Positions 23,357 to 40,375 of a stretch of DNA of 64,000 bases are shown here, one piece after another. Location: NCBI GenBank assembly GCA_965262145.1, contig OZ253501.1:1695366-1759365 (forward strand). Reading direction: 5' to 3'. The notes below the pieces were generated by a model that did no database searches, was not told the DNA's origin, and was given only the letters and a program-made list of their open reading frames with translations. Both the position numbers and the translations under genes were made by a program. How positions within the stretch are numbered: position 1 is the stretch's first letter; each line of letters begins with the position of its first letter. Source of the DNA: Candidatus Latescibacterota bacterium. GTDB taxonomy: Bacteria > Latescibacterota > UBA2968.

Positions 23357-24481
23357 TTACTCCTCTACCCACGAGCGCGAGTCGGGCACGTCTAACCACG
23401 CCCCGTCTTGCACAATTGATTGCTGACTGATTAATCCCGGCAAGGTCATGTCCATTGCCTCGTGAATGCCAATTGGACAGTCGATTTCGCCGTTAATGCT
23501 TTGGATAAAATCCATTATTTCAAAAAAGTCGCCTCCGCCGTGCCCTGTTTTTAATGCCGCTTCAGAGGGGTTGCGCCACATGTCGGGCAAATAATCTTCT
23601 TCTAAATTTTCCAAAACCATCCATTCATTTTTTTTGTCGCAGATATCTGCAAGCCATACGCGATTGACGCCACCGCGCGCGCGCGCCGATTCATAACACC
23701 CTTTTGTCCCTTGTAGTTGGAAATTGCCGGTTGCATGGGGCCGCTCCGATAGCATATCTACCCGAATTTTTACCAGTCCACCGCACGCCATTTGGCACAA
23801 CATGACGCACGAATCCTGATTTTCATACTGATCTCCCCGCGGGTCTGTGTAATGGTGCCCGCTGCCTGCACAACACACGCGCACCACGCGGTCGCCTGGC
23901 ATCCATTGCAAAAGAGGTCCCAGGCTGTGCGTGCAATAGGTTATACCATCAATGCCCGTTTGCCACTTGCGCCGCCATGTTGTGATTTCATTCAGGGCTT
24001 TCAATTCGTGTAAATACTCTCCTTCTCCATAATATACATCGCCAAACAAACCCCGGCGCACGAGTTCTTTCACCAGTACGTTGGCGCGGGTATAGGTGTA
24101 ATTTTCAGCCATCATATAGATTGCTTTTGACGAAGTAGCGGCCTGCACCAACTCGCGGCATTCCGCTACGGAGACCCCGGCGGTGACTTCGCTCAGAACG
24201 TGAATATTGCGACGCAGTGCCTCAATTGCCTGCGGAGCGTGAAAATGCATGGGCGTGCCAATGACGACCGCATCGATTTCAGAACGCGCCAGCATGGTTT
24301 CATAATCCGCGTATTTTTCAGGCGCTCCCAATCGTTCAGCAGCAGCGTCGAGTTCCTCTTCGCGCACATCGCACACTGCGTGAATGCGGGCCGTTTCCTG
24401 CGCTTCAAAAGCCACCCGAAAACTGCCCCCTCGCCCAGCAGCCCCCACAATGCCCACGTTTAATTTTTCAGTAATGCCCAT
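23357..24481 (-). CDS. Gfo/Idh/MocA-family NAD(P)-dependent oxidoreductase
   Basis: Rossmann 'VGIVGAAGRGG'. ATG 24481 is preceded by GGGAG. The longer listed ORF start 24673 runs into the upstream gene. Confidence 0.8.
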   Translation of the reverse strand: MGITEKLNVGIVGAAGRGGSFRVAFEAQETARIHAVCDVREEELDAAAERLGAPEKYADYETMLARSEIDAVVIGTPMHFHAPQAIEALRRNIHVLSEVTAGVSVAECRELVQAATSSKAIYMMAENYTYTRANVLVKELVRRGLFGDVYYGEGEYLHELKALNEITTWRRKWQTGIDGITYCTHSLGPLLQWMPGDRVVRVCCAGSGHHYTDPRGDQYENQDSCVMLCQMACGGLVKIRVDMLSERPHATGNFQLQGTKGCYESARARGGVNRVWLADICDKKNEWMVLENLEEDYLPDMWRNPSEAALKTGHGGGDFFEIMDFIQSINGEIDCPIGIHEAMDMTLPGLISQQSIVQDGAWLDVPDSRSWVEE

Positions 24482-24485
24482 GGTT

Positions 24486-27272
24486 TTACTCCCATGTGTT
24501 GTTTGTAAAATCCAGTTGATTGGCGTTTTCGGATACGGCGCGTTTGATTTGATCTGGAACGCCATTGGGGAACTCTGCCTGTATTTCCAGCCGGACATCC
24601 ACCTGTGCTTGTGGGTCGCTTTGAAGAAGGCTGATGATTTCTTCGGCAATTTGTACAAGACGCATCTTTGCAACGGATGGATTTACATTCGCTGTGCCGA
24701 TGAATGTATGTATAGAAGTCTGTTCCTCTGGGGGGGGAGTCTCTTCGGGTGGTGGGGCAGGGGCGGGAGGACTGCCAGGGGGAGGGTCTGGGTCTATATC
24801 GGGATCAGGCGTTTGATTTTCAGCTTCGTATTGCTTTGCGGCTTCTGGTTCGATCAACAAGAGTGTGTCGTCGAGTTGTACATTTGCATCACCTAACTTG
24901 AAGCCATCGAATTTGCCATCGCTATGTCCATAAGCTGTACCAAAGAAATCTCGGCTGTCAGCCCCTGTCGCGATAACCTGAGCAAATACATCGCGATTTT
25001 TGAGGCGCGGAAGGTAGAGGTACTGCATCGTATCTTCCCAAAATACCATAGCCTCAATGGCGGGTTTATCGGGTTTCCAATAAAGCTCTTGTAGTCTGGT
25101 GCGAAGGTGAATAGGTGACCATGTGATAATTACCAGTTCGTTTTCCACGCATACGCGCTCAATTTCATTTCCCAATGGGGTGCCATGCGTGTTCAATGCA
25201 AATGCTTCGACAATGAGTTTGCGGTCTGTGGGCGTGTTTTGCACCGCACACAAAAGCCATTTATAACATTCTCGCGCAATTTGTGGGAGAACATCTTCGG
25301 CGGTTTGAAGCTGTTTTTGTGCCTGTTGGACCTGAAGCGTGTCCAGCACTAGGCGCATCTCAGATACATCTTCGACGATTGATTTCCAGGCCAAAGCCAC
25401 CCGAATACAATCGCGCAACCGCCCCAACAAACTATAATCTGGCGCGAGGAATACCAACCGATTGCCCCGGTACCTGGGTTTTGCACCGTGATTGCGCACA
25501 TAGTCCAGAATCGCTTCGGTTGAGAGCCGCGTTTCTTCACGAGAATAAAAATTTTCAGGCAAGAGATAGATCAGGCGCAATGCGCTGTCATCGGGAACAT
25601 CGGCATGGGGAGTAAATATGTGCTTGCCCTCGAAAAACGAGATGCCGGTTGACATTTTTTTCAGTACTTCGGCCAGCTTGCCGCGCACTTCGTTTTTGTC
25701 ATCAAAGCGTCTCTTGCGGTCTTCCATCTCGCGCCGAAGATTTGCTCGCGTATCAAACCAGAACCGCGTGACTTCTCGCGCTTTGTCGCCAGAACTGTTG
25801 AGATAATGCAAGCGATCCGATAGGCGATTGAGGGCGTCTGAATAAACCGAAGATGGTTGACCGGGTTGCAAACACCCCAATAGTACACGCGATCTATCGA
25901 GTCCCCGTGTGTTGGATGTTTGTACAGCAGAAGAAGGCGCACTCCCCAGAAAAAGCGTTCTTGCCACGCGGCGGGCAGCCTGAACAGCACCAAACCGAGG
26001 CTCTTTGTTTTCGAGTTCTGTTGTTTCTGCGCGTTCACCGTCTATGTCTCTTTCTATGACGGGATCCCAGCCCGCTGGCAAATAATAGGTCAATTCGTTG
26101 CGGGAGCCGCCATCGTACAGGGGCAAACTGCTGGGCAAAATCATCGTGTCTTTATTGTCGTCTTCCCATAACCGATAAATTACTTTGGCCATCAGTTTGA
26201 GTACGCCGCGCGTACGCTGGAACCCATCTATGGTAGCCCAATCTTCGTATAGCCGATCAAAGACTTCGGGGTGGATGGGATAGGCTTGTATCAAGCGGTC
26301 GAAATAGCGGGCTTCTTGTGTTTCTCCCGGTAGCTTTGCACCTTCGGCAACATACGCATCGGCATAAGCCCTGCAAACTGTTTCGCGGGTTTGTTCATCG
26401 GTGATGGTTTGGAATAAACGCCGCCTTACGATTTCAAATGCCTCTTCGGTTGCAACGGGCTTCCACAGGGCCTGTACGCGCCCAAATGTTTTTTCCAATG
26501 CACGCAAAGCCATGATCCCCCGGTTGCCACCTGCTTCCACTGTAGATTCGGGTAAGGATCCCAAAATCACGGCATTGGGTACTAATTTACACGCTTCTGT
26601 GAGGGCTTGAATAAATGACAAATTGCTGTCATAACTTCCACCGCTCAAATTTTGTCCTTCCTGAAATTGCCGAATATAAGCTACCAATTCGTCAATGAGG
26701 ATCACACAGGGTGCGTAAGTTTCCAGGAGTGTTTTTAGCACATCTTTGCCCGGTGATGTGCCATTTGCATCGGCTGCTTTGACAAGCTCAAATCCCTCTT
26801 TTTCCCCCAATTGGTAGGCGAGTTCACCCCACAATGTGCGAATGCCGTGTTTCCATGGCTGACCGGGTGCATGAGCCTGACCGTCTAAAATGGCAACCCG
26901 CGCTTTGGGTACGTCCATCATCCCGGCCTTGTCGAGCAGTGTTGGAATGCCCGCCAAATCACTCAATTCACAATTTCTCGTTGTGAGATGATAGACTGCC
27001 AATAGCGTGTGCGTTTTGCCGCCCCCAAAAGCCGTTTGCAATTGAATGACTGGCTCTCCACCTGTACCATTGAGCCGCTGCGCGACTTGCATCAGCAGCG
27101 TTTCCATGCCTTCTGTGATGTAGGTGCGCTGAAAAAAAGCAATGGGGTCTTGATATTCCCGCGTGGCTTCACCCTTGCGAACGGCTGTTATATCGGCGGC
27201 AAATTCCGATTGCTGAAACGTGCCTTCGAGCACATCGGGATGAGGAATAACGACTTCTCTCCAGGGTTTCAT
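24486..27272 (-). CDS. DUF499-family (BrxC-like) P-loop ATPase, component of a DUF499/DUF1156/SNF2 three-gene defence system
   Basis: Start '[14 protein letters not shown]…[11 protein letters not shown]' is typical of DUF499. Walker A '[10 protein letters not shown]'. Length ~928 aa. Confidence 0.75.
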
Positions 27273-27326
27273 AATACCTGCTCCGGTTGAATTTACTGTT
27301 CGGCCTTTGGGCAAGAGGGGCGTGGT

Positions 27327-30227
27327 TTATTCAAAAAGCCGTGATTGCACGGGTTCAGTCACAACTGCACTTTCAATGCCTGTCCAGCTTGTGACCAGTT
27401 CGTTATATGCTCGCGCATCCTCTGCCCATCCCTTGCGTTCACAAAGGGTGTAGAGACGATAAGCCAATTGCCGCGTGGCCCCGCGTTGGGACTTCACTGC
27501 TCCAAGTTGAGCACCGGCCACTGTTTCGCCCGATTGTTTTAATGTGCGAATCAAATGATGCAGGGTTTCCCAGATTGGGTTGCGTGAATCTGTGTGTGGA
27601 TTCCAATTGGTGGGATATTCAGACCACCTGTGCAAACGCACCTGCCCCCCGCCAGACGCAATGACCCCGGCATTTTCCACCCCATCGACACTTGTTCCCT
27701 TTGCGCGCGAAAGGGTATCTGCATCGCCATAGGGTCCCTCGCGCCAGCCGTATTGTTCAAACCAGTGCAAGCAGAATTGCGTATCGGCATCAAAATCGTC
27801 TTCAGCCAGGTACCGGTTGATAAGCTGAAGCGCTGTTCGCACGGGCATTGGTGTCCCATCGGCTTCAAGCACAGCCTGGTATTTGGAAAAAACAGCCATT
27901 CCCGGTCCAATGATGGCCTGAGACAAATCCACTGGTGCAACCGGAGACCGATCTTCACCGGCCCCTCGGGTCATCTCATCCAGTGCTTCTGGCAATACCG
28001 CATCTAACTCTCGCAAAAACTCTCGTCGAGAAATAACAGGTGCATCAGCAGAACGCTTTTTGCAAACGAGAATGATGCTGGAGGCGAGGGCATTGGTACC
28101 TGCTGCAATCTGGCGAGACTTCATTTCAGTACGCATCGGCCAGGTGCCCGAAAGCTGAAATCCTGCTTGATCAACAGCTTCTAAAAAGGTCTCCCAGCCG
28201 GTGGAAGTTGTGCCCCCGTTGGCTTTTTTTTCCGCCTGCTTGAAGGCATAGTAGATGGTAACGGGAAAACCGGGGTGTGCTTGCTCTGCCAGCCGTTGCA
28301 TCGCCTTTGTCATCCCGCCCATGAAGAATGCCTCTGCCTCATCATTACTGTTGTGGCGGTAGCGCATGGCAACCAATTCATCGGCCTTGGGCGTGGCGAG
28401 TGTGGCAAATAGGTCGGGAAATACCGAGCGTAGCGAACGGCGCAGCCAGATGTAGAAGAAGTCCGAAAGATCAGCGTAGCAGATGTTGTCGTAGTAAGGC
28501 GGATCGGTGGATATGATCATTCCATTTGACAAGTCCTGTGTCTGAGCGTCTGCCTGAACGGCAAAACCAGAAGTATTGATCTCAAGAGGAATACCCTTGA
28601 TCACTCCGGCAACTGAGATTTTGTAGTCACCTGCTGCACCTGCAAAGGGATTTACATCTGGGAAATCCCAAGTCATTGGAATGGCTTGGCGGGCGAATGC
28701 TGTCACGGTTTGTTCTCTTCCTGGTGTCCAACGTGCGATCGTACAAAGCGTGTTGCTCATGCGATCTACAGCAAAAGCCAGGTACACCCCCATCGCTTCT
28801 GCATACGCCGTTGCACCATTGCCGCCATCGCGCAGAGGGCTGTCGTCGTCAGGTAAACCGGCAGCGGTAGCATCGCGCTTGACTTGCTCCATTGCATCTT
28901 GTATCAGGTCGCTAAAAGTTGTGAGAGCGACGAGTTGGCGGGAGGTGAAAAGATCGGCCCATGTGAAGAAGCCGTAACCTCGGCCGCTAACCAAGTTGGG
29001 GGTATCGCGATTCATTGGTTCGTCCGGCTTCCACTTCGGTTTCGCCTCGTGTGCGATGGCTTCCATTTCCGGTGTAGGTGATAGGTACACCCGCCCGCGG
29101 TCGCCCGAGGCCACAATTGCCATGAGCCGTGCGCCCATGCGCCCGCCCATGCTCTCGGCCTTGATGTGGTTGCTCGACATCGGTGCGCCGGATAGCAAGC
29201 AACGGAAGGTTGACCCGCGTCCGAGTTTTGTTCCGGCTTTGGCTGCATCTGGATCCTTTGGCTTGCCTACTTTTAAGATGAAGTGATAGGCGTCTCCTTT
29301 GATGACTGGCTCTATGTAGGCTTCTTTTTTGTTCTTGGTGGAGAGCATAAAGGTCGAAATCAGGGGTACATCTACATGGGCAAAGGCCGGGTTTGGGCTT
29401 TTTACCGTGCGCGCCCACAGCCATGCGATGACTGTGAGTTTGCGTCCCGCGTACTGTTTCAGATCTGACCTTTTGGCGACCATCTCTTCTGTGATGGCGA
29501 TTTTTGGGTACAGATGGCCGATGCGTTTTTCGGCCTGGTCACGCATCCATTTGCCATAGTAGCGCACATCCTCGGCAAGGCCCGTTGCGCCTTTCCACCG
29601 CGCTTTTTGGGCGAGATTTTTCTGCATATCTGGGTTTACTGGCGGTCTGTTAGAAAATTTTGGTGGGATCTCGATCATTGCTTTGTTGATGAGCACAGCA
29701 ACGGGATTGAGGTCTGAGGCGTATGCTTTCAGGCCAAGGCGTTGCGCTTCCAGCGGGATTGCACCTCCGCCTGCAAACGGATCATGCAGGGCAGGGAGTT
29801 TGTCCGGGTTGAACAATTCGGCAGCCTGTGGGTGGTCTTTGTTGAGTTCACACACTTCTCGCCATGACCGACGGATCTCAACCCTTGCCTTTTCCAATAC
29901 TTCCTCGTTTGTGGTGTTTTCCCACCGTACGAGTTCTTCAATGATTTTGAATAGCCGTTTCCGCTCAATAGCGGCGTCCTTTTTATTCACGCCATATTTG
30001 AATCCGTCTCCTTGCTGGTATCCCGGGTCATTCACAAGCTGTGCAAAGATAACCGCGCGTGCCGCAGCAAGTGGTCGCCGTGCCCACCACAGATGCAGGG
30101 TGCTGGGGTGTCCATGTCGAATAGATTTTTCGCGTGCCGCTGCCGCGTTGATCGCGTCCAGAGGTAGCGCAACTTCAATGAGTTTCCTGGGTATTTTGAC
30201 ATTCTGATACATACCTGCTCGTTTCAT
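27327..30227 (-). CDS. DUF1156-family N6-adenine DNA methyltransferase
   Basis: DUF1156 N-terminal signature '[12 protein letters not shown]…[27 protein letters not shown]'. Catalytic motif IV 'DPPYYD'. ~966 aa. Start chosen at M15; M20 is also possible. Confidence 0.8.
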
Positions 30228-30272
30228 TTTGTGTGGGTGGTGGTTCCTGTTCGATTGGCAGTCTCTCAATGG

Positions 30273-30701
30273 TCATTCTTCAGGTAAGTTGGGACGCTCG
30301 CGCCAGCGCGAGGCATCTGCGAGTTCTTGTGCATGCCGCTTTTGTTCTTCCCTGTCTTCAGCTGTAAGCTCTGGTAGGCGAATATCCGCATGATACGGAT
30401 TATTATCGAGCGGAGAGGCAATGGCCTGCCGTCCATTGCAGTCAGCTTCCTCAGCGGTAAGGAAGGCCCATCCGTAGAAAGTGGCACTAGGTGTACGTGC
30501 TGCGCCTACATTATCAGCAATTGCAACTGCCTCTTTCGCTGGTGCGATACTGAGTCTGTCAACCGAAATGTCGGTTTGGCCCTCTTTTTCTAAAAAAGCA
30601 TTATGTGAGACTCTGGATCGCCGCGCACGCTTCGCCTCCCTACTTGAAAACATACTACGCCCGAGTTCCTCCGCCGGTGCGATGTTATTCGGAATATTCA
30701 T
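30273..30701 (-). CDS. Hypothetical protein (142 aa), cargo gene inside the defence island
   Basis: Open frame with good coding periodicity, 46 nt downstream of the lower-GC pair. I recognise no family. Confidence 0.4.
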   Translation of the reverse strand: MNIPNNIAPAEELGRSMFSSREAKRARRSRVSHNAFLEKEGQTDISVDRLSIAPAKEAVAIADNVGAARTPSATFYGWAFLTAEEADCNGRQAIASPLDNNPYHADIRLPELTAEDREEQKRHAQELADASRWRERPNLPEE

Positions 30702-30715
30702 GAAATTTTATCATC

Positions 30716-31423
30716 CTACTGATGCAACTCGATTAGAGCTTCACGCACAAAGCCGTCGGGAAGTGTACTGGTAGTGTCATAACGGGCGCGTCTATGATTG
30801 CCGTTCATGTTGACCAGACACAGCGCACCGCCTGCGGAATCGCATAGTAACAAAACTGACCGTCCGTGCCCGCCCGGAGCATCAATGGCAATCTCGCCAT
30901 CCGGTGTGGGATATACCTCGAAACGACGGGGTGAAATCAAGTACATCTCTCTCAACAAGCGCTCCGCATTTTCCAAAGCCATTTCGGATGGCACAGGGAA
31001 CCCTTCTTCAAGTGCTTCGTCCTTTGCCTCCTGAAGATCGTACAGTGCATCGTACAGTTCAGGATTGAGTGTCTTCTCAATTGCTTCGTAAAAATCACGG
31101 AATGCGTTGGCCCGTTCAAAGTTGTATGCCTTCGCAATTCGACTAATTAGAAGATTATAGATATCGGAACTCGATGTATCGGGTTCGATACTATAACTAG
31201 GCGAAAGCAATAATGTTTCTAAGTCTTTTGACTCTTTTGCAGGCTCATTTAAAATAGCCTCTAATATAGACTGACTATTAATTAGTCCCTCCTCAGTCTT
31301 GCTAATCCAATCTGTCGAATAGCCAAATATATTCATATCGTCCGGGGTAGTTCCGGTATCCGGACTATCTAATAGCCCGATGTTTTTGTACAGCATTAAT
31401 GTGGGAGAACTGAAAGTTGTCAT
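30716..31423 (-). CDS. Hypothetical protein (235 aa), lower-GC cargo gene
   Basis: 4-bp ATGA overlap with the upstream ORF. No recognisable motifs. Visibly AT-richer than the flanks. Confidence 0.4.
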   Translation of the reverse strand: MTTFSSPTLMLYKNIGLLDSPDTGTTPDDMNIFGYSTDWISKTEEGLINSQSILEAILNEPAKESKDLETLLLSPSYSIEPDTSSSDIYNLLISRIAKAYNFERANAFRDFYEAIEKTLNPELYDALYDLQEAKDEALEEGFPVPSEMALENAERLLREMYLISPRRFEVYPTPDGEIAIDAPGGHGRSVLLLCDSAGGALCLVNMNGNHRRARYDTTSTLPDGFVREALIELHQ

Positions 31424-32127
31424 GATTTAGACTCCTGGAAATTGAACTTTTTTACCAGCGCATCAAAATCAGATAAATCATTTTTCCACAATGTAAGAAT
31501 GTCTGAAATTATGTTGATACGGTCTTGCTGATCCATTGTTGATGGTATATCTCGATGAATATTTGCTTGAAACAGCATAATAGGGATTTCTGGATCATCA
31601 TTTTTTTTCTTCGTTGTTTCAGCGATATCCAAGACAATCTTTCTTGTGTCATATTGATATATCGTTTTCAAATGAACCTCCGGTGTAACGTCCTTGAATG
31701 ACATCTCCGCACTTTTGATTAGGATATTAGAAACTTTTTCTGGAACTTCAGCAGATAAATACCTGTAACCTTTGGGATTGATACCAATAGCACTATAAGG
31801 GACATGAGGCACTTTCTCCATATAACGTTTCGCTATTTCCGGACACAGAATATCTTCTGGCGCCAAAGAGTCTCCCGTTTGCAGAAAAGTTACGCGATCA
31901 GGTAACGCCTGCACGATGATACCTCTCTCAAATTTCACTTGCGAAAAGAGCGGACTTGAAATTGGATTACCTTGCAGCGACAGGTCGGCATTCACGATTT
32001 CATTGTGACGCAAAAAGTCCGGGTTAATGATTGAGGGATTGTTTGACTGAGCAACTAAAACAACAGCAACCTCACCCAGTTTAACGCTCTTATCACTTTT
32101 TTCGTCCAGCAATTTCTCCTGTGTCAT
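31420..32127 (-). CDS. Hypothetical protein (235 aa), lower-GC cargo gene, first gene of a two-gene operon
   Basis: Open frame, translationally coupled to 30716..31423. Its own upstream intergenic region (32128-32279) carries an imperfect palindrome. Confidence 0.4.
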   Translation of the reverse strand: MTQEKLLDEKSDKSVKLGEVAVVLVAQSNNPSIINPDFLRHNEIVNADLSLQGNPISSPLFSQVKFERGIIVQALPDRVTFLQTGDSLAPEDILCPEIAKRYMEKVPHVPYSAIGINPKGYRYLSAEVPEKVSNILIKSAEMSFKDVTPEVHLKTIYQYDTRKIVLDIAETTKKKNDDPEIPIMLFQANIHRDIPSTMDQQDRINIISDILTLWKNDLSDFDALVKKFNFQESKS

Positions 32128-32224
32128 GATTGACCTCTCTTTTTAGTAGAATCGGCTGACCGCCGAACTACATCTCACTGCGAAATGGATCAACAGATAG
32201 TCATAATTTTTTGACTCCCGCCCA

Positions 32225-32253
32225 CCTATTGTAGAATTTGTCCACAATGTAGG
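32225..32253. promoter_or_regulatory. Imperfect palindrome CCTATTGTAG-aatttgtc-CACAATGTAGG in the promoter region of the lower-GC operon
   Basis: Read directly. TTGT…ACAA arms. Possible operator. Confidence 0.3.
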
Positions 32254-32279
32254 TGTATTTCAGTCATCTCCCGCGTCTC

Positions 32280-32762
32280 TCAGCTCAGCACTTGTGCCAG
32301 AGAGGTCCCACATTTAATTCTCTGAACGATTACTGATCTCCCGCGAAACTGGACTTTGTTGGACTTGTTTCTCAGTCGTCTTTGCTCAATTTTCGAAATC
32401 CTACCCGATGCAACAACCGGGGTAAAATTCGTATTTGCGTTATGTGGAATAATCTGATTGGCGACATCAGCACCAGCCTGAAGTTGCTTTGCGACCGCAC
32501 TGGCACTGACCCCACCTGATTTCAGTTCTATGGGTACGGTCCACGGACTTCCATCTGTATCGTCTAAATATCCGAGAAACAGGTAGTCGCATCGCGTTTC
32601 ATGCTGGCTCGGAGGTGAACTGGGAGAATCCATGTGGATCAGGACGAATTGACGCGAAACCCCCTTGAGAAAAATCGAACACTTTCCCGCTCTACACTGC
32701 TTTCTCAGGCATCGAGCATCCAATTTCCCTCGTACCGATTCCATCATCGTCATCTGGTTCAA
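32280..32762 (-). CDS. Small putative PD-(D/E)xK-like nuclease / Cys-cluster protein, partner of the AAA_21 ATPase
   Basis: 160 aa. 'LIHMD…CDYLFLGY…PIELKSG' fits a D…D…ExK arrangement. N-terminal CxxxxCxxxxC. ATGA overlap with the ATPase stop. Confidence 0.35.
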   Translation of the reverse strand: MNQMTMMESVRGKLDARCLRKQCRAGKCSIFLKGVSRQFVLIHMDSPSSPPSQHETRCDYLFLGYLDDTDGSPWTVPIELKSGGVSASAVAKQLQAGADVANQIIPHNANTNFTPVVASGRISKIEQRRLRNKSNKVQFRGRSVIVQRIKCGTSLAQVLS

Positions 32763-34291
32763 CTTTCCTCAATTCGGTTGGAGATTGTTGCCCAATCGTT
32801 GTGGGTACCAATCGCAATGTCGTCATAATCAGATCGGAATCCACCATAATCCACATCAAGGGGCATCTCCTTCACTATCGAACCCTTGGGGCGTTTTTTT
32901 GGCTCGAATAGCCAGGCGCCTACCTGGTCGGGACTGAGCGCGTAATCCGCCCCACCGACCCCTTTTCTCCGAGATTCAGGTAGATCGGATAGACGTACCA
33001 AGTTAGCGAGTTCTTCCAGTACCCATTCGCTATGTGTGGTAATGATGACCCGTATGCCGGAACGCACCGCCGCAGCGAGGTGCCGAATGAACGCGACCTG
33101 CATTCCGGGGTGTAAGTGGGATTCGGGTTCTTCGATGATCAGGACTTCCCCAGGGGAGACGACATGGCGCAGGTACAATACGACGGGCGCGAGTTCCGAT
33201 ACCATTGACGAAGTATTCATCAATTGCATGTCTTCTTTCCATCCTGTTGGTTGGTAGGAAAATACCGGGTAGCCAGTAGATGAATTTTCGATGCGAATTG
33301 ATCCACTCAGGATTTCTTTTTCGAGACGTTGGGTGAGATTCTCATTTAGCCTTTTCTTTTTCCTTGCCAAATCGCCCAAGTCAAGGAGTTGTTCGATGAA
33401 GTCGGCGAGAACGCCAGACAACTCAGGTAATGCTCGTTCGGGGCGAAGACCCGCACGCGACGCACCTTGGATCAAAGAACCTACGACGACTTTGTGCGCG
33501 TGCATGACGCCCGCGCGGTCTGCGGGGAGATAATAGGCAGGCCGACTCATTGGATTCGCGAAGTAAGAAACGACGTTACCAAAAAGGTTATCTATCAATG
33601 CAGCCGCCGCCAAAAACCTTCTTTCTCTACTATCTGGCCATTTTGGTTCGAAATTTTTTATTCGGGATGTGATTTGGATATACTCCTCAATGGCGCCTTT
33701 TCCGATCTGCAAAGGTGCTGTGTCGGGAATTGAAGCGATGAAAGCCTTTTTTGTAATATTGAATTTATACAATGAACTGTTGTTGTACCTCGCTTCTGAT
33801 GAGCCTGGCGTTTTTGAAAGTAGAGCGACCTTCGCGCTTTCCTTATTTGCATGGCGAATAAGCTTTCTGGTCTCGTCAATACCAAAACACCGCATTATTT
33901 CAGGGGCGAGATCATCGCCGAGGAGAACATCACTGAGCATAGGACGGATCAGCGATGCAATTACGTCTGGTACAGGAAAATCCTCTGACGAACCCTTTAT
34001 TTTCATTTGCGAAACGATTTGGTCCGCTCCGTCAATCAAACGCGCGATATTTTCCTCGGATATCGCCTGCTCGTATAATAAACCTCTACGAGAAGAAAAA
34101 TAAGGACGTCTTGTTGTCCTGCGGCTATTAAAAAACTTATGCAGCGCGTAGATCAAAATCGCCAGATAAGATTTTCCCGTATTGCTCGGTCCGACAAATA
34201 CGGTGAGTGGGCGCAGTTCGATTTCTGCACTATAAATCGGTCCGAAATCCCTGACCGATAGCATCAGATTTCTGTTTTCTGATGTCGCCAT
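32759..34291 (-). CDS. AAA_15/AAA_21 (OLD/ABC-like) ATPase of abortive-infection-type two-gene modules
   Basis: Walker A 'GPSNTGKSYL'. Walker B / H-loop 'VLIIEEPESHLHP' … 'ITTHS'. ATG 34291 is preceded by AGGAGG. Confidence 0.75.
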   Translation of the reverse strand: MATSENRNLMLSVRDFGPIYSAEIELRPLTVFVGPSNTGKSYLAILIYALHKFFNSRRTTRRPYFSSRRGLLYEQAISEENIARLIDGADQIVSQMKIKGSSEDFPVPDVIASLIRPMLSDVLLGDDLAPEIMRCFGIDETRKLIRHANKESAKVALLSKTPGSSEARYNNSSLYKFNITKKAFIASIPDTAPLQIGKGAIEEYIQITSRIKNFEPKWPDSRERRFLAAAALIDNLFGNVVSYFANPMSRPAYYLPADRAGVMHAHKVVVGSLIQGASRAGLRPERALPELSGVLADFIEQLLDLGDLARKKKRLNENLTQRLEKEILSGSIRIENSSTGYPVFSYQPTGWKEDMQLMNTSSMVSELAPVVLYLRHVVSPGEVLIIEEPESHLHPGMQVAFIRHLAAAVRSGIRVIITTHSEWVLEELANLVRLSDLPESRRKGVGGADYALSPDQVGAWLFEPKKRPKGSIVKEMPLDVDYGGFRSDYDDIAIGTHNDWATISNRIEES

Positions 34292-34320
34292 TGTTGCCTC
34301 CTCTGAATATCCTGGATGGC

Positions 34321-35103
34321 TTATTGGGCAGGTGTACCTTTTTGGAGCAACGTTTTTAGATCGAAGTTGACAGATGAAACGCCCCAACCTGGTTCGGTGT
34401 CAAAGGGGTTGCGAATATAATAGGGGCCATCTACGGTGTCGTCTTCATCCACGAGTACAATCGCGAGTAAGAATTTGTTGGCTTGATTGAGTGCATAAAG
34501 GATTTCATTACGAGATATAGTCACGGTGGTTGCACCTTTCACACGGCCTTTCACTTCTATGTGTCGAACTTCGTTGGTTACTTCATCATCAACGGTGGTA
34601 TAAGATGTGATATCCCATCCGCATTTCTGTGCCGAAACATCTATGACGCGACATCCGCGTTGTTTTTCCACTTGAATTACAGTATCCATTGCAATGCGTT
34701 CAATACGCGCGCGTGCCTGTGCATCAACAGCAAAAGTGGATTTCCCTTCTTCTGGTAGTTCGCCGCGCAATTTGCGAAGTAAGCCCACGGGAACGACGAG
34801 CGCACCTCCAAGGGCAACGGGTGTCGCAGATGTGACGTGCCGCATGGCCTGGAGTTCCTTTTTTCGATTTTCCAAACGTCCTTCAAGATCGCTCACCATA
34901 CGTCTTGCTCTTTCGAGAGGGAGGCGCACGTCTTTACCCATTTCTGCGTCTTCTTTGAGTTTGAGCCAGCGGTCCGACAAAAATTCGATTTCTCTGGTCA
35001 AGCGTTCATGAACAGCGGCGAGGGTCTTATCTACCCCGAAAAATTCATAAAATCTGAGAAATTGGCGTAAATACTGGACTTCCCAGTTATTGCATCGAAA
35101 CAA
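34321..35103 (-). CDS. DUF3883-like restriction-endonuclease-fold domain protein (stand-alone), encoded in-frame downstream of the SNF2 helicase
   Basis: C-terminal '[19 protein letters not shown]…[11 protein letters not shown]…' is a PD-(D/E)xK-like core (D…E-V-K) typical of DUF3883. TTG start. Confidence 0.5.
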
Positions 35104-35157
35104 ATATTTTTGGCCTAAATTTCATAACCATTTGTAAAAAATAAAATTATGGAAATT

Positions 35158-37986
35158 TTAAGCAAATTCATGAATTAGTCGGGCTACATGTTCAATCCGT
35201 CGTTGGGCTACTTCTCCATAATGTTCGGGCACCAGTGTTTCGGCGGCTAATGCCAATGCGCGTTGTTCATGATCTGTACAAATCCACGGTTCAGCGAGCA
35301 CATCTTTGAGCAAGTCGCGGTCACCATCTGAAATGGGTTCTAAATCGAGATGTGGTGCCCATCCTGCAAAAGCAGCAGAACCGTCGGGCGCAACACGTAC
35401 AAATTGTAAGCGTTTAGACAATGTCCTGTCAACATCTCCTTTGATTTCATGTGTGAGTAGAAAAAGCAAATGGGGTTCTATGCCTTCATCGGTGGGATCG
35501 ACGAGCACTGTACCTTGCCGTAGCAAATTGCCGTGACGCTCCAACAATACATCGCTGGCAGCCAACATCAACGGATGGCCGGGGTGCAACATCGCCGCGA
35601 AAGGCGCATTGGGCTTATCAACGAGACGAACAGCCTCTTTAGTAAAGCAGACTCGTTCGTATTTTTTCAGTACGGGCGCTATATCGCGACGGTTACGACC
35701 CGTTATCATTCGGTCTCGATCCCGAATTGCAACAGGAACATGTGTAATTTCAAAACGGGCAGCTTCCCGTTGATAAATAACGCCTCCTAAGGACTCAAAA
35801 GCTTTTAAGAAAAAGGAACGCACAAAATAGGGCTGAAGTCGTCTGGCCTCGGCTTTTTCCATTTCTTCTTTGACCGCAAAGAGGCGTTCGGGATGCATTG
35901 TTTCTTTTGCAAGTGCGTTGCGGTGGAGAATAGCGAGTATGTGTTCGCGGTCAAAGGCGTGATCGACCTTTTGATTCAAGCTTGCCCGGATTTCGGGCTG
36001 ATCGCCATATCTGATCGCATTAAGCAAAAGGTCTTTCAGGCTAACGCCTTCAAATACTTCGCCCAAAATGTCAAATACCCGACCTTGTAGAGCCGAACTC
36101 TCAACTTCCAGTTTTTGCAAAAGCCGGTGATACACATCGCCTTCACGGGTCTCTCTGGCTACCAGATTCCAAAGATGACATACATCTTGTTGTCCAATGC
36201 GATGTATGCGCCCAAAACGCTGTTCCAGACGGTTGGGATTCCACGGCAAATCGTAATTCACCATCAGATTGGCATTCTGAAGGTTCACGCCTTCTCCGGC
36301 GGCATCTGTTGCAACGAGGATACGCACTTCGGGGTCGGAGCGGAACCGAGCCTGGACGCGCAAACGCTCGTCGTGTTGAATACCACCGTGAATGGTGACG
36401 ACTGAATTGGGATTCCCCAGCACACCTGCAATTTTATTTTGCAGATAGTTGATGGTATCGCGGTGCTCAGAAAAAACGATCAGCTTGCGCAAATTTCCAT
36501 CTGTATCGCGTATAGCCTGGTCCTGCTGCAAAATGCGCGAAAGCTCGTCCCATTTGCGATCTCGCTCGGAATGCACAACTGCTTCGGCCTGATTTTCCAG
36601 TTTTTTTAAAATATCTATTTCTTGCGCCAATTCTGTAACTGTCCGTGCAGCAGTCGCCTGATCTACAAGTGTCTCTTCCAGATTTTCTTGCTCTTCGGCA
36701 TTGAGTTCATCGTCGTCTTCGGGAATGTCCGCAAGAAGCTCAGCAAGATTTTTTGGCTTGTGCATACCCAATTTTTCTTCGCGCAAACGGCTTTCCAATC
36801 GTTCTTTTCTGCGCTTAAGCGACTGGAAAATTGCTTCGGGACTCGAGGCGAGACGGCGTTGTAATATTGTTAATGCAAATCCAACTGAGCCTTTGCGTTT
36901 GCTATCGAGTTGATCTGCCTTGCCCATTTCAGTTTGCACATAGTGTGTCACTGCCTCGTAAAGCGTGGCCTCAATATCCGAGAGTGTATAATTTACCGTA
37001 TATGCTTTGCGTTCGGGAAATAACGGTGTGCCATCAAACTTAAACATTTCCTCTTTGACCATTCGGCGCATCAAATCCGAGTAATCGACTTTGTGAACTC
37101 CATCTCGAAATTTACCATAAAATCGGTCTGAATCCAGCAATGAGAGGAAAAGCTGAAAATCTTCTTCTTTGCCGTTGTGGGGCGTTGCCGTTAGGAATAG
37201 AAGATGCCGTGTGTGCTCACCTACTTTTTCCGCTAAAAGAAAGCGTTTTGTGCGTTCAATTTCGCGTCCATAAAAATGTGCCGAAAGTTTATGCGCTTCA
37301 TCAAAGACTACCAGATCCCAGGGTTCAAGACACAGTTTTTGTTGATAGTCTTCATTGCGTGCCATCTGGTCGAGCCGGACAATGAGATGATCGTGGACTT
37401 CAAATGGGTTGCGGCCAGGAGAAGTGGCTTCGAGTTCTTTTGAAAAAATGCGAAATTCCAGACCGAATTTTTCATACAACTCATCGCGCCACTGTTCAAC
37501 GAGATTCCCGGGTGCTACAATTAGAATACGGCGTGCATCTGCACGCATAAGCAATTCGCGGATGTAGAGGCCCGCCATAATGGTCTTCCCCGCACCGGGA
37601 TCGTCAGCCAGAATATAGCGCAGGGGTTGCCGGGGTAGCAGGGACTCATAAACTGCTGTTATCTGATGTGGAAGTGGCTCCACATTTGACGTGTGGACAG
37701 CCATCATCGGATCAAAGAGAAAAGCCAGATCAATACGTTTGGCTTCGACCGCGAGTTTAAAGGCTTCGCCATCCCCATCAAATGACCATGGACGCTCCTG
37801 TGTGGCAAGCGCAATATTTTCCTCATCCGCTCGATTCAGCAAGCGTTCTTTGAGCGTGCCATCGGGTGTTTTGTAGATAAGCGTTACAGAATCTTCAGTA
37901 ATGGGTATTACCGCGACGACAGAGACAACACTTGACGGTTCAATACCCACAAGGGAGTTACCCACAGATAAGTCTTCGATTCGCAT
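35158..37986 (-). CDS. SNF2-family helicase of the DUF499/DUF1156 defence system
   Basis: Motif I 'DDPGAGKT', motif II 'VVFDEAHKL', motif VI '[11 protein letters not shown]'. Start chosen at MRIEDLSV (ATG 37986). The ORF stays open up to 38094. Confidence 0.8.
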
Positions 37987-38126
37987 TAAAATACCTTTAT
38001 TAACAAATTCTATAGCAATCAGCGCATAGGCGTAGCTACGCCACAACGATAGGAATGACAACAAAAAAACTTTCTGGATCGCGGCTAAAACCATGCCGCG
38101 ATGACGGCTCTACAGCGCATGATTCG

Positions 38127-39815
38127 CTAACCGCTTTCGCTATGGCCCGTGAGGCGTATATCTTCCACCAGCATTTGCACGTTGGTTCTGCCTTGCCAGG
38201 TATTGGCCTGTAGTGCAAAGGCGAGATCGACGCGGTCGCCCAGTGATAATTCGTAAACCCGTTCGCCCTGGCGAAACCAGATTGCATCGCACAGATCAGC
38301 ACCTGTATCCACGCTGAGTTTCAGATGCGCCCCGCGGCTTATGGCGCGCGCATCTGCAATTCGGCAATTGCGGGCTATAAAACGCGGCAACGCGTTCTTT
38401 GCACCAAAAGGTGCCAATTTGTCCAGGGCGTCAACTGTCGTCAGAGATATATCGGATGGTTTAAGTGCCACATCGACTTCTAATTGGGGCGTCAGTGCTT
38501 CCTCTGATAGCCGCGCTTGAGCATCTGCGATCAACCGGTCTTGAAATTCGAGATAATTTTCAGCGGGGACTGAAAATCCGGCGGCATCGGCGTGTCCACC
38601 AAATTCGGTGAGCAAATCTGAGACGCGGAAAATCGCCTCGACGATATTGTATCCACCTGTTGTGCGCGCAGAACCCGTATAGATGCCATTTTTTCGAAAG
38701 TTGGTACACACCAGCGCTGGGCGCGAAAATTTTTCGACCAATCGCCCGGCGATCAGCCCGACCACACCCAGATGCCAGTCTTCACCACGCACCACCAGAA
38801 TGCGATATTGATCCAACCAGTTATCCTCTACCATGCGTTCTGCTTCGGCTATACCGTCGTTTTGCAGAGCCTGTCTTTCGCCATTTAGACCGTTTAATTC
38901 TTCGGCGAGTTTTGCCGCCTGTCCCCGGTTTTGACAGCGCAACAAATCGAGTGCCAGATCGGCCGATGATAGGCGCCCGGCGCTGTTGATGCGCGGTCCC
39001 AGGAAGAATCCAATAGAGATCGTGTCAACGGGGCGGTTGGTCGTACCCGCGACGGCTTTGAGTGCCTGCAAGCCCGGTCGCTCGGTGGTATTGAGGACCT
39101 GCATCCCCTTTCGCGTAAGCAGGCGATTTTCTGCAACCATGGGGGCCATATCAGCCACAGTGCCCAATGCGACGAGATCCAAAAGCGAGTTCAAATATCG
39201 GCGGCGTTCTGAATTGGGCAGGAACTCGGATGCCAGAGCCTGTACTACCTTAAATGCCACCCCCACGGCAGCCAGTCCCTTGAAGGGATATTCGCAGTCT
39301 GCGCGATTGGGATTCACCAGTGCCAGGGCGTCTGGCAATTTGTCTTGTGGATGGTGATGGTCAATGACTACCACATCAATTCCGGCGTTATTGGCAGTGT
39401 CAACAGCCTCAAAAGATGAAATACCATTGTCGGCAGTTACAATGAGTTGTGCTCCCCTGTTGAGTGCCCTCGTCACACCCGGCGGTTTCATGCCATACCC
39501 ATCTCGGAACCGGTCGGGCAACAAAAATGTGGCATCGGCACCCACCATATCAAAAAAATCGAGCAAAACAGCGGTGCTCGTGACGCCATCTACATCGTAA
39601 TCGCCAAAAACCACAATGCGCTCTTTATTGTGAATGGCTTCCGAAATGCGTTCAACTATGCGGTGCATGTCTTTCATTAAATAGGGGTCATTCAAAATAT
39701 CGGGAGAATCGGCCAAATCCTCTATTTTCAGTGAACGGTTTGCGAGAATGACATCGGCAATAGAATGATAATCGCCCTTATGGCGTATGTTCCATATCGG
39801 GTATTTAGGCTCCAT
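38127..39815 (-). CDS. recJ: Single-stranded-DNA-specific exonuclease RecJ
   Basis: DHH motifs 'VFGDYDVDGVTS', 'VIDHHHP'. DHHA1 region 'GGHADAAG'. Confidence 0.85.
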   Translation of the reverse strand: MEPKYPIWNIRHKGDYHSIADVILANRSLKIEDLADSPDILNDPYLMKDMHRIVERISEAIHNKERIVVFGDYDVDGVTSTAVLLDFFDMVGADATFLLPDRFRDGYGMKPPGVTRALNRGAQLIVTADNGISSFEAVDTANNAGIDVVVIDHHHPQDKLPDALALVNPNRADCEYPFKGLAAVGVAFKVVQALASEFLPNSERRRYLNSLLDLVALGTVADMAPMVAENRLLTRKGMQVLNTTERPGLQALKAVAGTTNRPVDTISIGFFLGPRINSAGRLSSADLALDLLRCQNRGQAAKLAEELNGLNGERQALQNDGIAEAERMVEDNWLDQYRILVVRGEDWHLGVVGLIAGRLVEKFSRPALVCTNFRKNGIYTGSARTTGGYNIVEAIFRVSDLLTEFGGHADAAGFSVPAENYLEFQDRLIADAQARLSEEALTPQLEVDVALKPSDISLTTVDALDKLAPFGAKNALPRFIARNCRIADARAISRGAHLKLSVDTGADLCDAIWFRQGERVYELSLGDRVDLAFALQANTWQGRTNVQMLVEDIRLTGHSESG

Positions 39816-39979
39816 AAAATCTCCAGAGTGGTTGATTATAGTGAGTATATGCGATCTGTGCTTGACTTGAAGTCAATTTGAACGTTAATTTTTTGAAACC
39901 AATATTTCACTTGGGAATCTCATAGGCTGAACGGTGGATCAATTTTACACCTTCTGCTAACCGCTTTCAGGAGTTTAAA

Positions 39980-40375
39980 ATGTCAGAATATTTCAATACA
40001 GTCAAATCTTATCTTCAAGACCTCAATCTCGCGGTTGACGAGGAAGATACCGCTGAAGAACTCGTTGTGGTGAGTGACGAAGATCGCGGTATCAATCACC
40101 TCATTGTCGATTGTGAAGATCCCATCCTCATTATTGAGCAGGCCATTCTGCCCATTCCCAACGTTCCTGGCGACCTGTACAAAAGGTTGCTCGAAATGAA
40201 TCGCACACTTGTTCACGGGGCGTTTGCCCTCGATGAGGAGATCGGTACGGTTCTTTTTCGCGATACCTTGCGCCTCGATACCCTCGACCGATCTGAGCTT
40301 GAAGGCTCGATTACCGCGCTCGAACTCGCCCTGGCCGAAAATGCCGCAGAATTACTCGAATATAGCCATCAGTAG
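39980..40375 (+). CDS. YbjN-like (putative sensory-transduction/chaperone-fold) protein, PspA-associated
   Basis: 131 aa, acidic, YbjN-like length and pattern. Family call by gestalt and context only. Confidence 0.45.
   Translation: MSEYFNTVKSYLQDLNLAVDEEDTAEELVVVSDEDRGINHLIVDCEDPILIIEQAILPIPNVPGDLYKRLLEMNRTLVHGAFALDEEIGTVLFRDTLRLDTLDRSELEGSITALELALAENAAELLEYSHQ

Follow-up and report, generated by a model that had tools for sequence, protein, structure and literature searches.

In a 64,000-nucleotide (nt) stretch of a Candidatus Latescibacterota genome (GenBank assembly GCA_965262145.1, contig OZ253501.1, positions 1,695,366 to 1,759,365; hereafter the window, numbered from its first letter), two adjacent, co-oriented genes encode an ABC-type ATPase of 510 amino acids (aa) and a small protein of about a third of that length. 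An initial annotation, made from the letters alone, had described them as a nested pair of open reading frames (ORFs), and both minus-strand ORFs were found at the coordinates that it gave. The word “nested” also fits their surroundings, since the pair lies between the HmaA and HmaB genes of a PADLOC-defined Hma system; hmaA, the pair, hmaB, and hmaC are all read from the same strand. The positions of the genes and their motifs are collected in Table 1.

The ATPase gene begins with an ATG at 34291, five nt upstream of which lies AGAGGAGG. A longer, TTG-started version of this ORF (to 34387) is unlikely to represent the real start because it runs into the upstream gene. For the small protein, the TTG at 32762 overlaps the ATPase stop codon as TTGA, and an alternative ATG at 32753 is located five nt beyond this stop; the ATG, giving 157 aa, is the likelier start because homologues begin with MTMMES. 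The stop and start thus overlap or are separated by no more than 5 nt. Residue numbers of the small protein refer throughout to the 160-aa version (TTG 32762).

Table 1. Positions in the window of the ATPase–small-protein pair, its motifs, and the neighbouring genes.
Feature	Position	Strand	Remark
ABC-type (OLD/WonA-like) ATPase gene, 510 aa	34291..32759	minus	ATG start
Walker A GPSNTGKS (aa 34-41; K40 = WonA K34)	34169..34192	minus	unchanged in 35 homologues
Hypervariable insert, aa ~61-240, putative sensor part	33572..34111	minus	identity among sister genomes; predicted model
YYLPADRAG, R259 replacing the Q-loop glutamine, an OLD-family deviation (= WonA R182)	33509..33535	minus	Y254, L255, P256, R259, G261 invariant
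ABC signature-like NTSSMVSE	33194..33217	minus	N359, S361, S362, S365, E366 invariant; aligns to WonA NASSGQQE
Walker B and D-loop VLIIEEPESHLHP (E388 = WonA E300)	33107..33145	minus	aligns to WonA FFIEEPEAHLFP
H-loop ITTHS (aa 417-421; H420 = WonA H333)	33029..33043	minus	alignment and conservation
C-terminal extension, aa 436-510, putative nuclease-docking surface	32762..32986	minus	model and conservation
Small PD-(D/E)xK-fold protein gene	32280..32762	minus	160 aa from TTG 32762, or 157 aa from ATG 32753
N-terminal cysteines C18, C23, C28 of the small protein	32679..32711	minus	C18 and C28 conserved, C23 not
RCDYLF, predicted catalytic Asp D59 (“PD” position) after conserved C58	32577..32594	minus	D59 in 49/49
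IELKSG, (D/E)xK motif E79-L-K81 (K81 = WonB K71)	32514..32531	minus	aligns to WonB IELKG
KQLQAG, with Q93 on the helix that follows the ExK strand	32472..32489	minus	Q93 in 49/49
Cassette extent: the only part that Hma-less sisters keep between recJ and the gene downstream	32227..34362	minus	blastn
HmaA (SNF2 helicase + NOV_C/DUF3883), split into 978-aa and 260-aa ORFs	34321..38094	minus	PADLOC; ORFs 38094..35158 (model 1-946, E=0) and 35103..34321 (model 943-1170, 1e-98)
HmaB (DUF1156 adenine methylase)	30269..27327	minus	PADLOC E=0; Pfam DUF1156
HmaC (DUF499 ATPase)	27314..24486	minus	PADLOC E=0; Pfam DUF499
recJ, upstream of Hma	39815..38127	same strand as Hma	Pfam
ORF downstream of the pair, 235 aa	32127..31420	minus	
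ORF downstream of the pair, 235 aa	31423..30716	minus	
ORF downstream of the pair, 142 aa	30701..30273	minus	

The ATPase carries the full OLD-type motif set, namely Walker A, an arginine substituting for the Q-loop glutamine, the signature, Walker B, the D-loop, and the H-loop, and its ATP-binding and hydrolysis motifs are intact. Across 35 homologues the invariant positions comprise G34 and S36-S41; YLPxxR259xG; N359, S361, S362, S365, and E366; L384-E388, P389, E390, H392, H394, and P395, which fall within LIIEEPESHLHP (aa 384-395); and T418-T419-H420-S421. The proposal that this is an ABC-type ATPase of the AAA_15/AAA_21 kind with a Walker A, D-loop, and H-loop layout is therefore upheld: the motifs quoted for it are present, and Pfam returns both AAA_15 (1.5e-20) and AAA_21 (2e-12). 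In PADLOC the best match is PD-T4-4_A (1e-36), followed by PDC-M47A (1.5e-29), NsnB, and AriA, and many weak matches to GajA, HEC-01A, HEC-02A, and Old are confined to the stretch from Walker B to the H-loop. NCBIfam gives only sub-threshold PtuA and transporter matches, and the PDB sequence search finds OLD and PtuA only, over ~45 residues. The protein has more than 6,000 homologues. In its predicted model, a helical and beta insert separates Walker A from the R-loop, and the C-terminal extension (aa 436-510), 83-100% conserved among relatives, folds as a structured beta-hairpin and helix.

The small protein has no significant match in Pfam, NCBIfam, PHROGs, or the PDB-sequence profile library. 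A PhzC-PhzF match in Pfam (0.0075) is due to chance (16 bits against a 27-bit cut-off), a myosin heavy chain kinase in the PDB sequence profile was discarded at E>1, and library scans rule out a TOPRIM, HNH, DUF4435, NERD, or PIN identity. The initial annotation had rightly set this partner apart from HNH, TOPRIM, and DUF4435 proteins; its predicted fold is that of PD-(D/E)xK. Although no Pfam family was matched by the 160-aa protein, profile comparison leads to WonB and the Novel REase (restriction endonuclease) family, as described below. The protein belongs to a sizeable family of its own: 46 homologous clusters were found at 90% identity, and a profile search over 1.84 billion representatives gave 1,517 clusters (50% identity) at E<=1e-3 and 943 at E<=1e-10, nearly all of them stand-alone proteins of about 150-165 aa.

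In an alignment of 49 diverse members of this family, C28, D59, E79, and Q93 are invariant (49/49), and D43, D45, C58, K81, G83, L94, P115, C151, and L155 are near-invariant, with K81, C58, and C151 each present in 47/49 members and D45 in 46/49. D45 ends one strand, C58-D59 opens the next, E79-x-K81 lies in a third, and Q93 is in the following helix. This motif order is the canonical layout of the fold and so supports a small PD-(D/E)xK-like partner; the D...D...ExK arrangement read from the sequence alone is borne out by the conservation of D45, D59, and E79-L-K81, to which the invariant Q93 can be added. The predicted model has a mean pLDDT (predicted local distance difference test) of 91.6, and its best structural matches are PD-(D/E)xK nucleases. 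The model thus supports a PD-(D/E)xK fold with intact catalytic residues, and nuclease activity is predicted. The cysteine triad proposed earlier (C18, C23, and C28) stood in part: C18 (43/49) and C28 (49/49) are conserved, C23 (29/49) is not. Most likely, judging from the alignment, C18, C28, C58, and C151 form a structural metal site that would tie the elements at both termini to the catalytic strand.

To follow the association of the two genes, we used 25 related loci fetched via small-protein homologues; two of them (L001 and L006) are one contig, and the sample, drawn with a narrow alignment, is skewed to Latescibacterota and Poribacteria. In 25/25 loci an ATPase homologue stands directly upstream of the small gene, abutting or overlapping it (phmmer E 1e-99 to 1e-245; in L021 the ATPase is broken into shorter ORFs, the best at 2e-91). 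The two genes form a single unit, and their association is more than chance, given the number of family clusters, the ATPase homologues, and the adjacency in every locus. All the fetched relatives are metagenome-assembled genomes (MAGs) of Latescibacterota (the close relatives of the window), Poribacteria, Bryobacterales, Dehalococcoidia, and Alphaproteobacteria. One Poribacteria MAG (L013:8358-12647), among the loci that have no Hma gene within 10 kb, carries two tandem, diverged copies of the pair.

The pair lies inside Hma in the window and in L002, L009-L012, L016, L018, L019, L021, L025, and L026-L028, and is free-standing, with no Hma, in 14 loci. Six Latescibacterota sister genomes have the pair on its own next to recJ, without any of the hma genes, and eight further loci have no Hma gene within 10 kb, the neighbours being sulfatase, AMP-ligase, FTHFS, MFS, transketolase, and Lon genes. 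When the window was compared by blastn with three Hma-less sisters (L001, L004, and L008), homology resumed at 34341-34362 and ended at 32227-32269; the retained cassette is the pair with a leader of ~70 nt. Since the pair occurs alone beside recJ in six sisters and among housekeeping genes elsewhere, it is autonomous: a mobile, self-sufficient cassette that is frequently carried within Hma yet also occurs without it.

At the recJ site the pair diverges much faster than its neighbour. RecJ is 93-95% identical between genomes, while the identity is 72-93% for the ATPase and 52-87% for the small protein. In the ATPase, residues ~61-240 are only 30-60% identical among the sisters, as compared to 80-100% for the ABC core. 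The first ~90 residues of the small protein (window 32496-32784) exist as two allelic types that are 20-40% identical and unalignable as DNA; the C-terminal half is conserved across both, and all catalytic residues and cysteines are retained in each. Such localised divergence suggests recombinational swapping or diversifying selection, and the pair, at 72-87% identity where RecJ is at 93-95%, bears what appears to be an arms-race signature.

The comparison with described systems begins with WonAB from the WASA-1 prophage of V. cholerae (Adams et al., Nat Microbiol 2025; PMC12137116). In WonA, an OLD-type ABC ATPase, the mutations K34A, R182A, E300A, and H333A abolish defence, and WonB is a small PD-(D/E)xK variant that loses both defence and toxicity in the K71A mutant. 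Defence needs both genes; the infection aborts without cell lysis, and translation stops while genomic DNA remains intact. WonB is Lon-labile and toxic when over-produced, this toxicity requiring active WonA, and the predicted docking site of WonB is on the C-terminal extensions of WonA, which dimerise. Adams et al. noted the similarity of WonAB to PD-T4-4 and, by their account, WonAB falls into the “OLD-ABC ATPase + Novel REase” operon of Krishnan et al. (2020), present in 0.96% of genomes.

The pair in the window resembles WonAB in its order, an ATPase followed by a small protein of ~140-170 aa, and in the ATPase residues K40/R259/E388/H420, which correspond to K34/R182/E300/H333 of WonA and include the arginine in place of the Q-loop glutamine (the corresponding R-motifs are FIPASR in WonA and YIPAGR in an E. 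coli homologue). The ATPase profile matches WonA with hhalign at 97.1% (E 5e-11). A conserved stretch lies within the C-terminal extension, and the alignment to a Geobacillus homologue reaches into this region, where LSPDQVGAWLFE is aligned with LSPERVKAYMLE of the Geobacillus WonA-type ATPase. The small proteins share the D...C-D...E-L-K...Q signature with a Cys before the catalytic Asp, and N-terminal cysteines are found in most WonB-type relatives. Against a profile of 10 Novel REase/WonB sequences taken from Supplementary Tables 4 and 5 of PMC12137116, the small-protein family scores 94.6% (hhalign, E 6.8e-8) with D45, C58-D59, E79-L-K81, and Q93 in register; against V. cholerae WonB alone the values are 75.6% and E 2.4e-5, with K81 placed on K71. 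The differences are also clear. The ATPase is here ~100 aa longer with other inserts, and only the ABC core and the C-terminal region align; the fourth conserved cysteine is C-terminal (C151), whereas the WonB type has an N-terminal pair, D-G-C, and C-D; and the present family occurs in Latescibacterota, Poribacteria, and other MAGs within Hma, while WonAB is carried by a prophage.

PD-T4-4 from E. coli ECOR58 (Vassallo et al. 2022, PMC9519451; Ragucci et al. 2025 preprint), described as “ATPase, nuclease” (1,973 bp), was validated against T4 in 2022; it is a PD-(D/E)xK nuclease–NTPase that forms higher-order complexes and showed no activity in vitro on any of the DNA substrates tried. The gene order is the same and the length similar (2,012 bp here), and the partner is again PD-(D/E)xK, with D...C-D...D-x-K...Q at similar spacing (D55, C88-D89, D106-x-K108, and Q120 in the PD-T4-4_B family alignment). 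By hhalign the ATPase matches PD-T4-4_A at 97.5%, and the small-protein family matches PD-T4-4_B at 62% (E 7.4e-5, 99 columns) with the motifs in register. PD-T4-4_B, however, has about 200 aa and no N- and C-terminal cysteines, and just the C-terminal ~200 residues of the ATPase match PD-T4-4_A: residues 297-492 fall on model positions 244-443, whereas the matches of true members are full-length (1e-109 to 1e-232). The PD-T4-4_B models gave zero matches in the 73 members of the small-protein family that were scanned, 24 of them at E<=1 and 49 at E<=0.01. Bona fide PD-T4-4 pairs, which cross-match PDC-M47A and PDC-M47B, were recovered on Col plasmids of E. coli and Klebsiella.

The PADLOC candidate PDC-M47 (Payne et al. 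2024 preprint) consists of an ABC ATPase and, after it, a small protein family (FAM_00005>>FAM_02059), and occurs inside BREX, DISARM, or type I restriction–modification systems; it is the sole library family directly matched by our small-protein family: 25/49 members match PDC-M47B at <=0.01 (best 1.7e-6), and the window protein itself scores 0.017. The ATPase matches PDC-M47A at 1.5e-29, partially, as compared to 6e-92 for PD-T4-4_A proteins. Since these scores are far below those of true members, PADLOC would probably not call the window locus. WonB-type proteins match PDC-M29B (B. fragilis 3.7e-62; WonB 1.2e-9), cross-matching PDC-M47B and PD-T4-4_B, and the PDC-M29B models give zero matches to the small-protein family of the window.

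Payne et al. (2024, bioRxiv 10.1101/2024.01.29.577857) found embedded genes in 62.7% of 1,485 Hma systems, the commonest family being diverse ABC ATPases with TOPRIM, NERD, or PIN partners (HEC-01 to HEC-03), which are protective and function without Hma; another 145 candidates (PDC), not assayed, were put into PADLOC. The window shows the same “guilt-by-embedding” pattern: the pair sits between same-strand hma genes, and its homologues are also found outside Hma. With HEC-01 and HEC-02 it shares the niche between hma genes, the orientation, and the combination of an ABC ATPase with a separate nuclease; HEC-02B is also PD-(D/E)xK (NERD), and HEC-01 is co-embedded with the pair in L011. The ATPase nevertheless matches HEC-01A and HEC-02A weakly (1e-12 to 4e-13), and the partner is not NERD, TOPRIM, or PIN. 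OLD, Gabija GajA, PARIS AriA, and Septu PtuA likewise have an ABC head with OLD-type motifs, but the matches to them cover only Walker B to the H-loop, and no TOPRIM, HNH (PtuB), helicase (GajB), or DUF4435 is present here; library scans of both proteins and the adjacent ORFs found no TOPRIM, UvrD-like helicase, or HNH.

Because the proteins cross-match each other's PADLOC models, WonAB/PDC-M29, PDC-M47, and PD-T4-4 appear to be branches of one superfamily, in which an ABC ATPase is combined with a small “C-D / E-x-K / Q” REase, and to which the present family seems to belong as a separate branch poorly caught by current models. The initial annotation suggested that the pairing may be an undescribed variant. 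This has to be withdrawn: at the profile level the small protein aligns with the partners of known systems, and precedents exist in PD-T4-4 (2022), WonAB (2025), the PADLOC candidates PDC-M29 and PDC-M47, Payne et al. (2024), and, as far as it is cited for WonAB, the operon of Krishnan et al. (2020). The locus is a divergent, unannotated example of a known two-gene system, not a new kind of system.

We suggest, with a probability of about 0.7, that the pair is a self-contained anti-phage module of this superfamily, in which an OLD-type ABC ATPase works with a small REase-fold partner, carried as a cassette between hmaA and hmaB. A defence role is also supported by the neighbours found across the Hma loci, including HEC-01, AbiJ, other AAA_15 pairs, and SoFic. 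By analogy with its relatives, the pair most likely functions as an abortive-infection system in which the ATPase senses the phage and licenses the nuclease. As in WonAB, the ATPase would dimerise via its ABC head, forming composite ATP sites, and the small nuclease would be held on the C-terminal extension; the variable insert could detect a phage cue, a role suggested here following Payne et al.; ATP binding or hydrolysis would be needed to license the nuclease, whose activity would halt the infected cell before phage progeny are made. The substrate is somewhat more likely to be RNA of the translation apparatus (tRNA or rRNA) than DNA because WonB arrests translation without loss of genomic DNA and PD-T4-4 is inactive on DNA.

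Several observations weigh against this interpretation. The homology of the small protein to WonB and PD-T4-4_B comes from profile comparisons over 63-99 core columns of small, hand-made alignments, and only 49-63 core columns align with WonB/Novel REase; in PADLOC the best match of the window protein (PDC-M47B, 0.017) falls short of significance, and its residue 43 is H where 45/49 relatives have D. For the ATPase, the likeness to WonA and PD-T4-4_A is limited to the ABC core and the C-terminal region, about 100-200 residues, and the predicted model is of moderate quality (pLDDT 69.5) and poor over residues 260-370. The pair shows no convincing promoter or terminator of its own, a consensus scan performing no better than on shuffled sequence, and its expression from the hmaA transcript is uncertain because HmaA is split and the host Hma, which may be non-functional, looks damaged. 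The functional reading of the present subfamily is drawn from sequence, models, and analogy.

The embedding raises the question of whether the pair is merely an accessory effector of Hma, for example the missing nuclease that restricts unmethylated DNA, without a function of its own. The pair is co-oriented with the C-terminal HmaA ORF and lies 29 nt downstream of it, 11/25 of the first contexts were inside Hma in three arrangements, and Hma has no dedicated nuclease except the NOV_C/DUF3883 domain of HmaA. We nevertheless consider this dependence improbable: the six sister genomes retained only the pair at the recJ-adjacent site, the eight other Hma-free loci have it among metabolic genes, WonAB and PD-T4-4 protect on their own in heterologous hosts, and the HEC pairs are active without Hma (Payne et al.).

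It is similarly improbable that the anti-phage module proposed here is instead an addiction unit resembling toxin–antitoxin systems, where the small nuclease would be the toxin, the ATPase a neutralising antitoxin, and the outcome stabilisation of the island. Such a scheme would agree with the two-gene architecture containing a small nuclease, the Pfam description of AAA_21 (“putative AbiEii toxin, Type IV TA system”), the toxicity of over-produced WonB, and the persistence of the pair where the adjacent genes have been deleted. However, WonB is toxic only in the presence of an ATPase-active WonA, and simple sequestration is thereby ruled out; all the catalytic ABC motifs are strongly conserved, although a mere antitoxin would not need them; and the hypervariable insert is better explained by sensing. 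A housekeeping function in DNA repair or recombination, linked to the adjacent recJ, with the ATPase being RecF/RecN/SbcC-like and the nuclease structure-specific, is very improbable in view of the patchy distribution over unrelated phyla, the divergence far faster than that of RecJ at the same locus with allelic replacement, the absence of coiled-coil arms, the defence systems as nearest sequence families, the co-embedding with HEC-01, AbiJ, and other defence cassettes, and the lack of recJ linkage outside this Latescibacterota lineage.

An extension of the anti-phage reading, unlikely to hold as a whole, is that the present family is a distinct, as yet unmodelled clade common in sponge-type and marine uncultured phyla (Latescibacterota and Poribacteria), which would combine a metal-stapled nuclease, the swapping of parts, and a preferential partnership with Hma. 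If so, the four-Cys site (C18, C28, C58, and C151) would serve as a structural or redox-sensitive switch beside the catalytic Asp, and the N-terminal half of the nuclease and the ATPase insert would be exchanged in a cassette-like manner between near-identical genomes, retuning sensing or cutting. The pair might then step in as a backup once Hma has been disabled by phage anti-restriction proteins, and would therefore be frequently embedded and be retained as Hma decays.

No new principle is revealed by the locus. Its value is mainly in annotation, where it supplies a model for a clade not yet covered, and it also shows which parts of the pair diversify. With no Pfam, NCBIfam, or PHROGs family for the partner and a PADLOC score below significance in the window, pipelines that use these libraries would probably label the locus “AAA family ATPase + hypothetical protein”, and a profile built from the partner family would extend the detection of WonAB/PD-T4-4-type systems into uncultured phyla. 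The natural series from a full Hma with cassettes, through a decaying Hma, to the lone pair, taken with the local hypervariability, can help to ask which parts sense phage and which face arms-race selection.

The window contains no tRNA genes and no Rfam matches at the gathering score. Its HmaA is split by a ~151-bp AT-rich, stop-bearing insertion at 35035-35185 with imperfect 23-nt inverted repeats at its ends; no further copy was found in the window, and it may be a small element resembling a miniature inverted-repeat transposable element (MITE) or an assembly artefact. The closest loci, L026, L027, and L028, have the same layout as the window, and the HmaA orthologues of L026 and L027 are intact (1,170-1,174 aa). 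A comparison of window 24000-40000 with L026, L027, L001, L004, and L008 reveals a series of Hma decay at one recJ-adjacent Latescibacterota site, from the full system (window and L026) through L027, which has lost HmaC and carries HmaB as a fusion with the downstream GFO_IDH gene, to the pair alone in six genomes. The deletions have their edges within hmaA and hmaC, 20-40 bp from the 3' ends of these genes.

Between the pair and hmaB, three co-oriented, partly overlapping minus-strand ORFs (30273-32127, GC 0.40) have zero matches in Pfam, NCBIfam, PHROGs, and PDB and only PDC-M32A (0.0014) in PADLOC. In L026-L028 they are retained beside the pair and followed by an ApeA_NTD1 gene; the Hma-less relatives lack them. 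They represent a second, uncharacterised embedded cassette.

The Hma arrangements observed are HmaA-pair-HmaB, HmaC-pair-HmaB, and HmaA-X-pair-HEC-01-HmaB. The HmaC-pair-HmaB order occurs in L009, L010, L012, L016, L018, L019, L021, and L025 (Poribacteria and two Latescibacterota); in these loci of ~20 kb, phmmer with the window HmaA found no SNF2 HmaA, and HmaC is ~200 aa longer at the N-terminus than the PADLOC model, so that they may represent an Hma variant without, or separated from, the helicase. In L012 a SoFic gene follows HmaB. The gap between HmaA and HmaB contains the pair and then a full HEC-01 in L011 (2317-19170); in L002 (2930-20471) it contains AAA_15 with DUF3226, the pair, a stray NOV_C ORF, AAA_15/DUF3696 with a 164-aa ORF, AbiJ_NTD4, and IS66. 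The stray NOV_C fragment in L002 may be a sign that the 3' end of hmaA takes part in cassette exchange.

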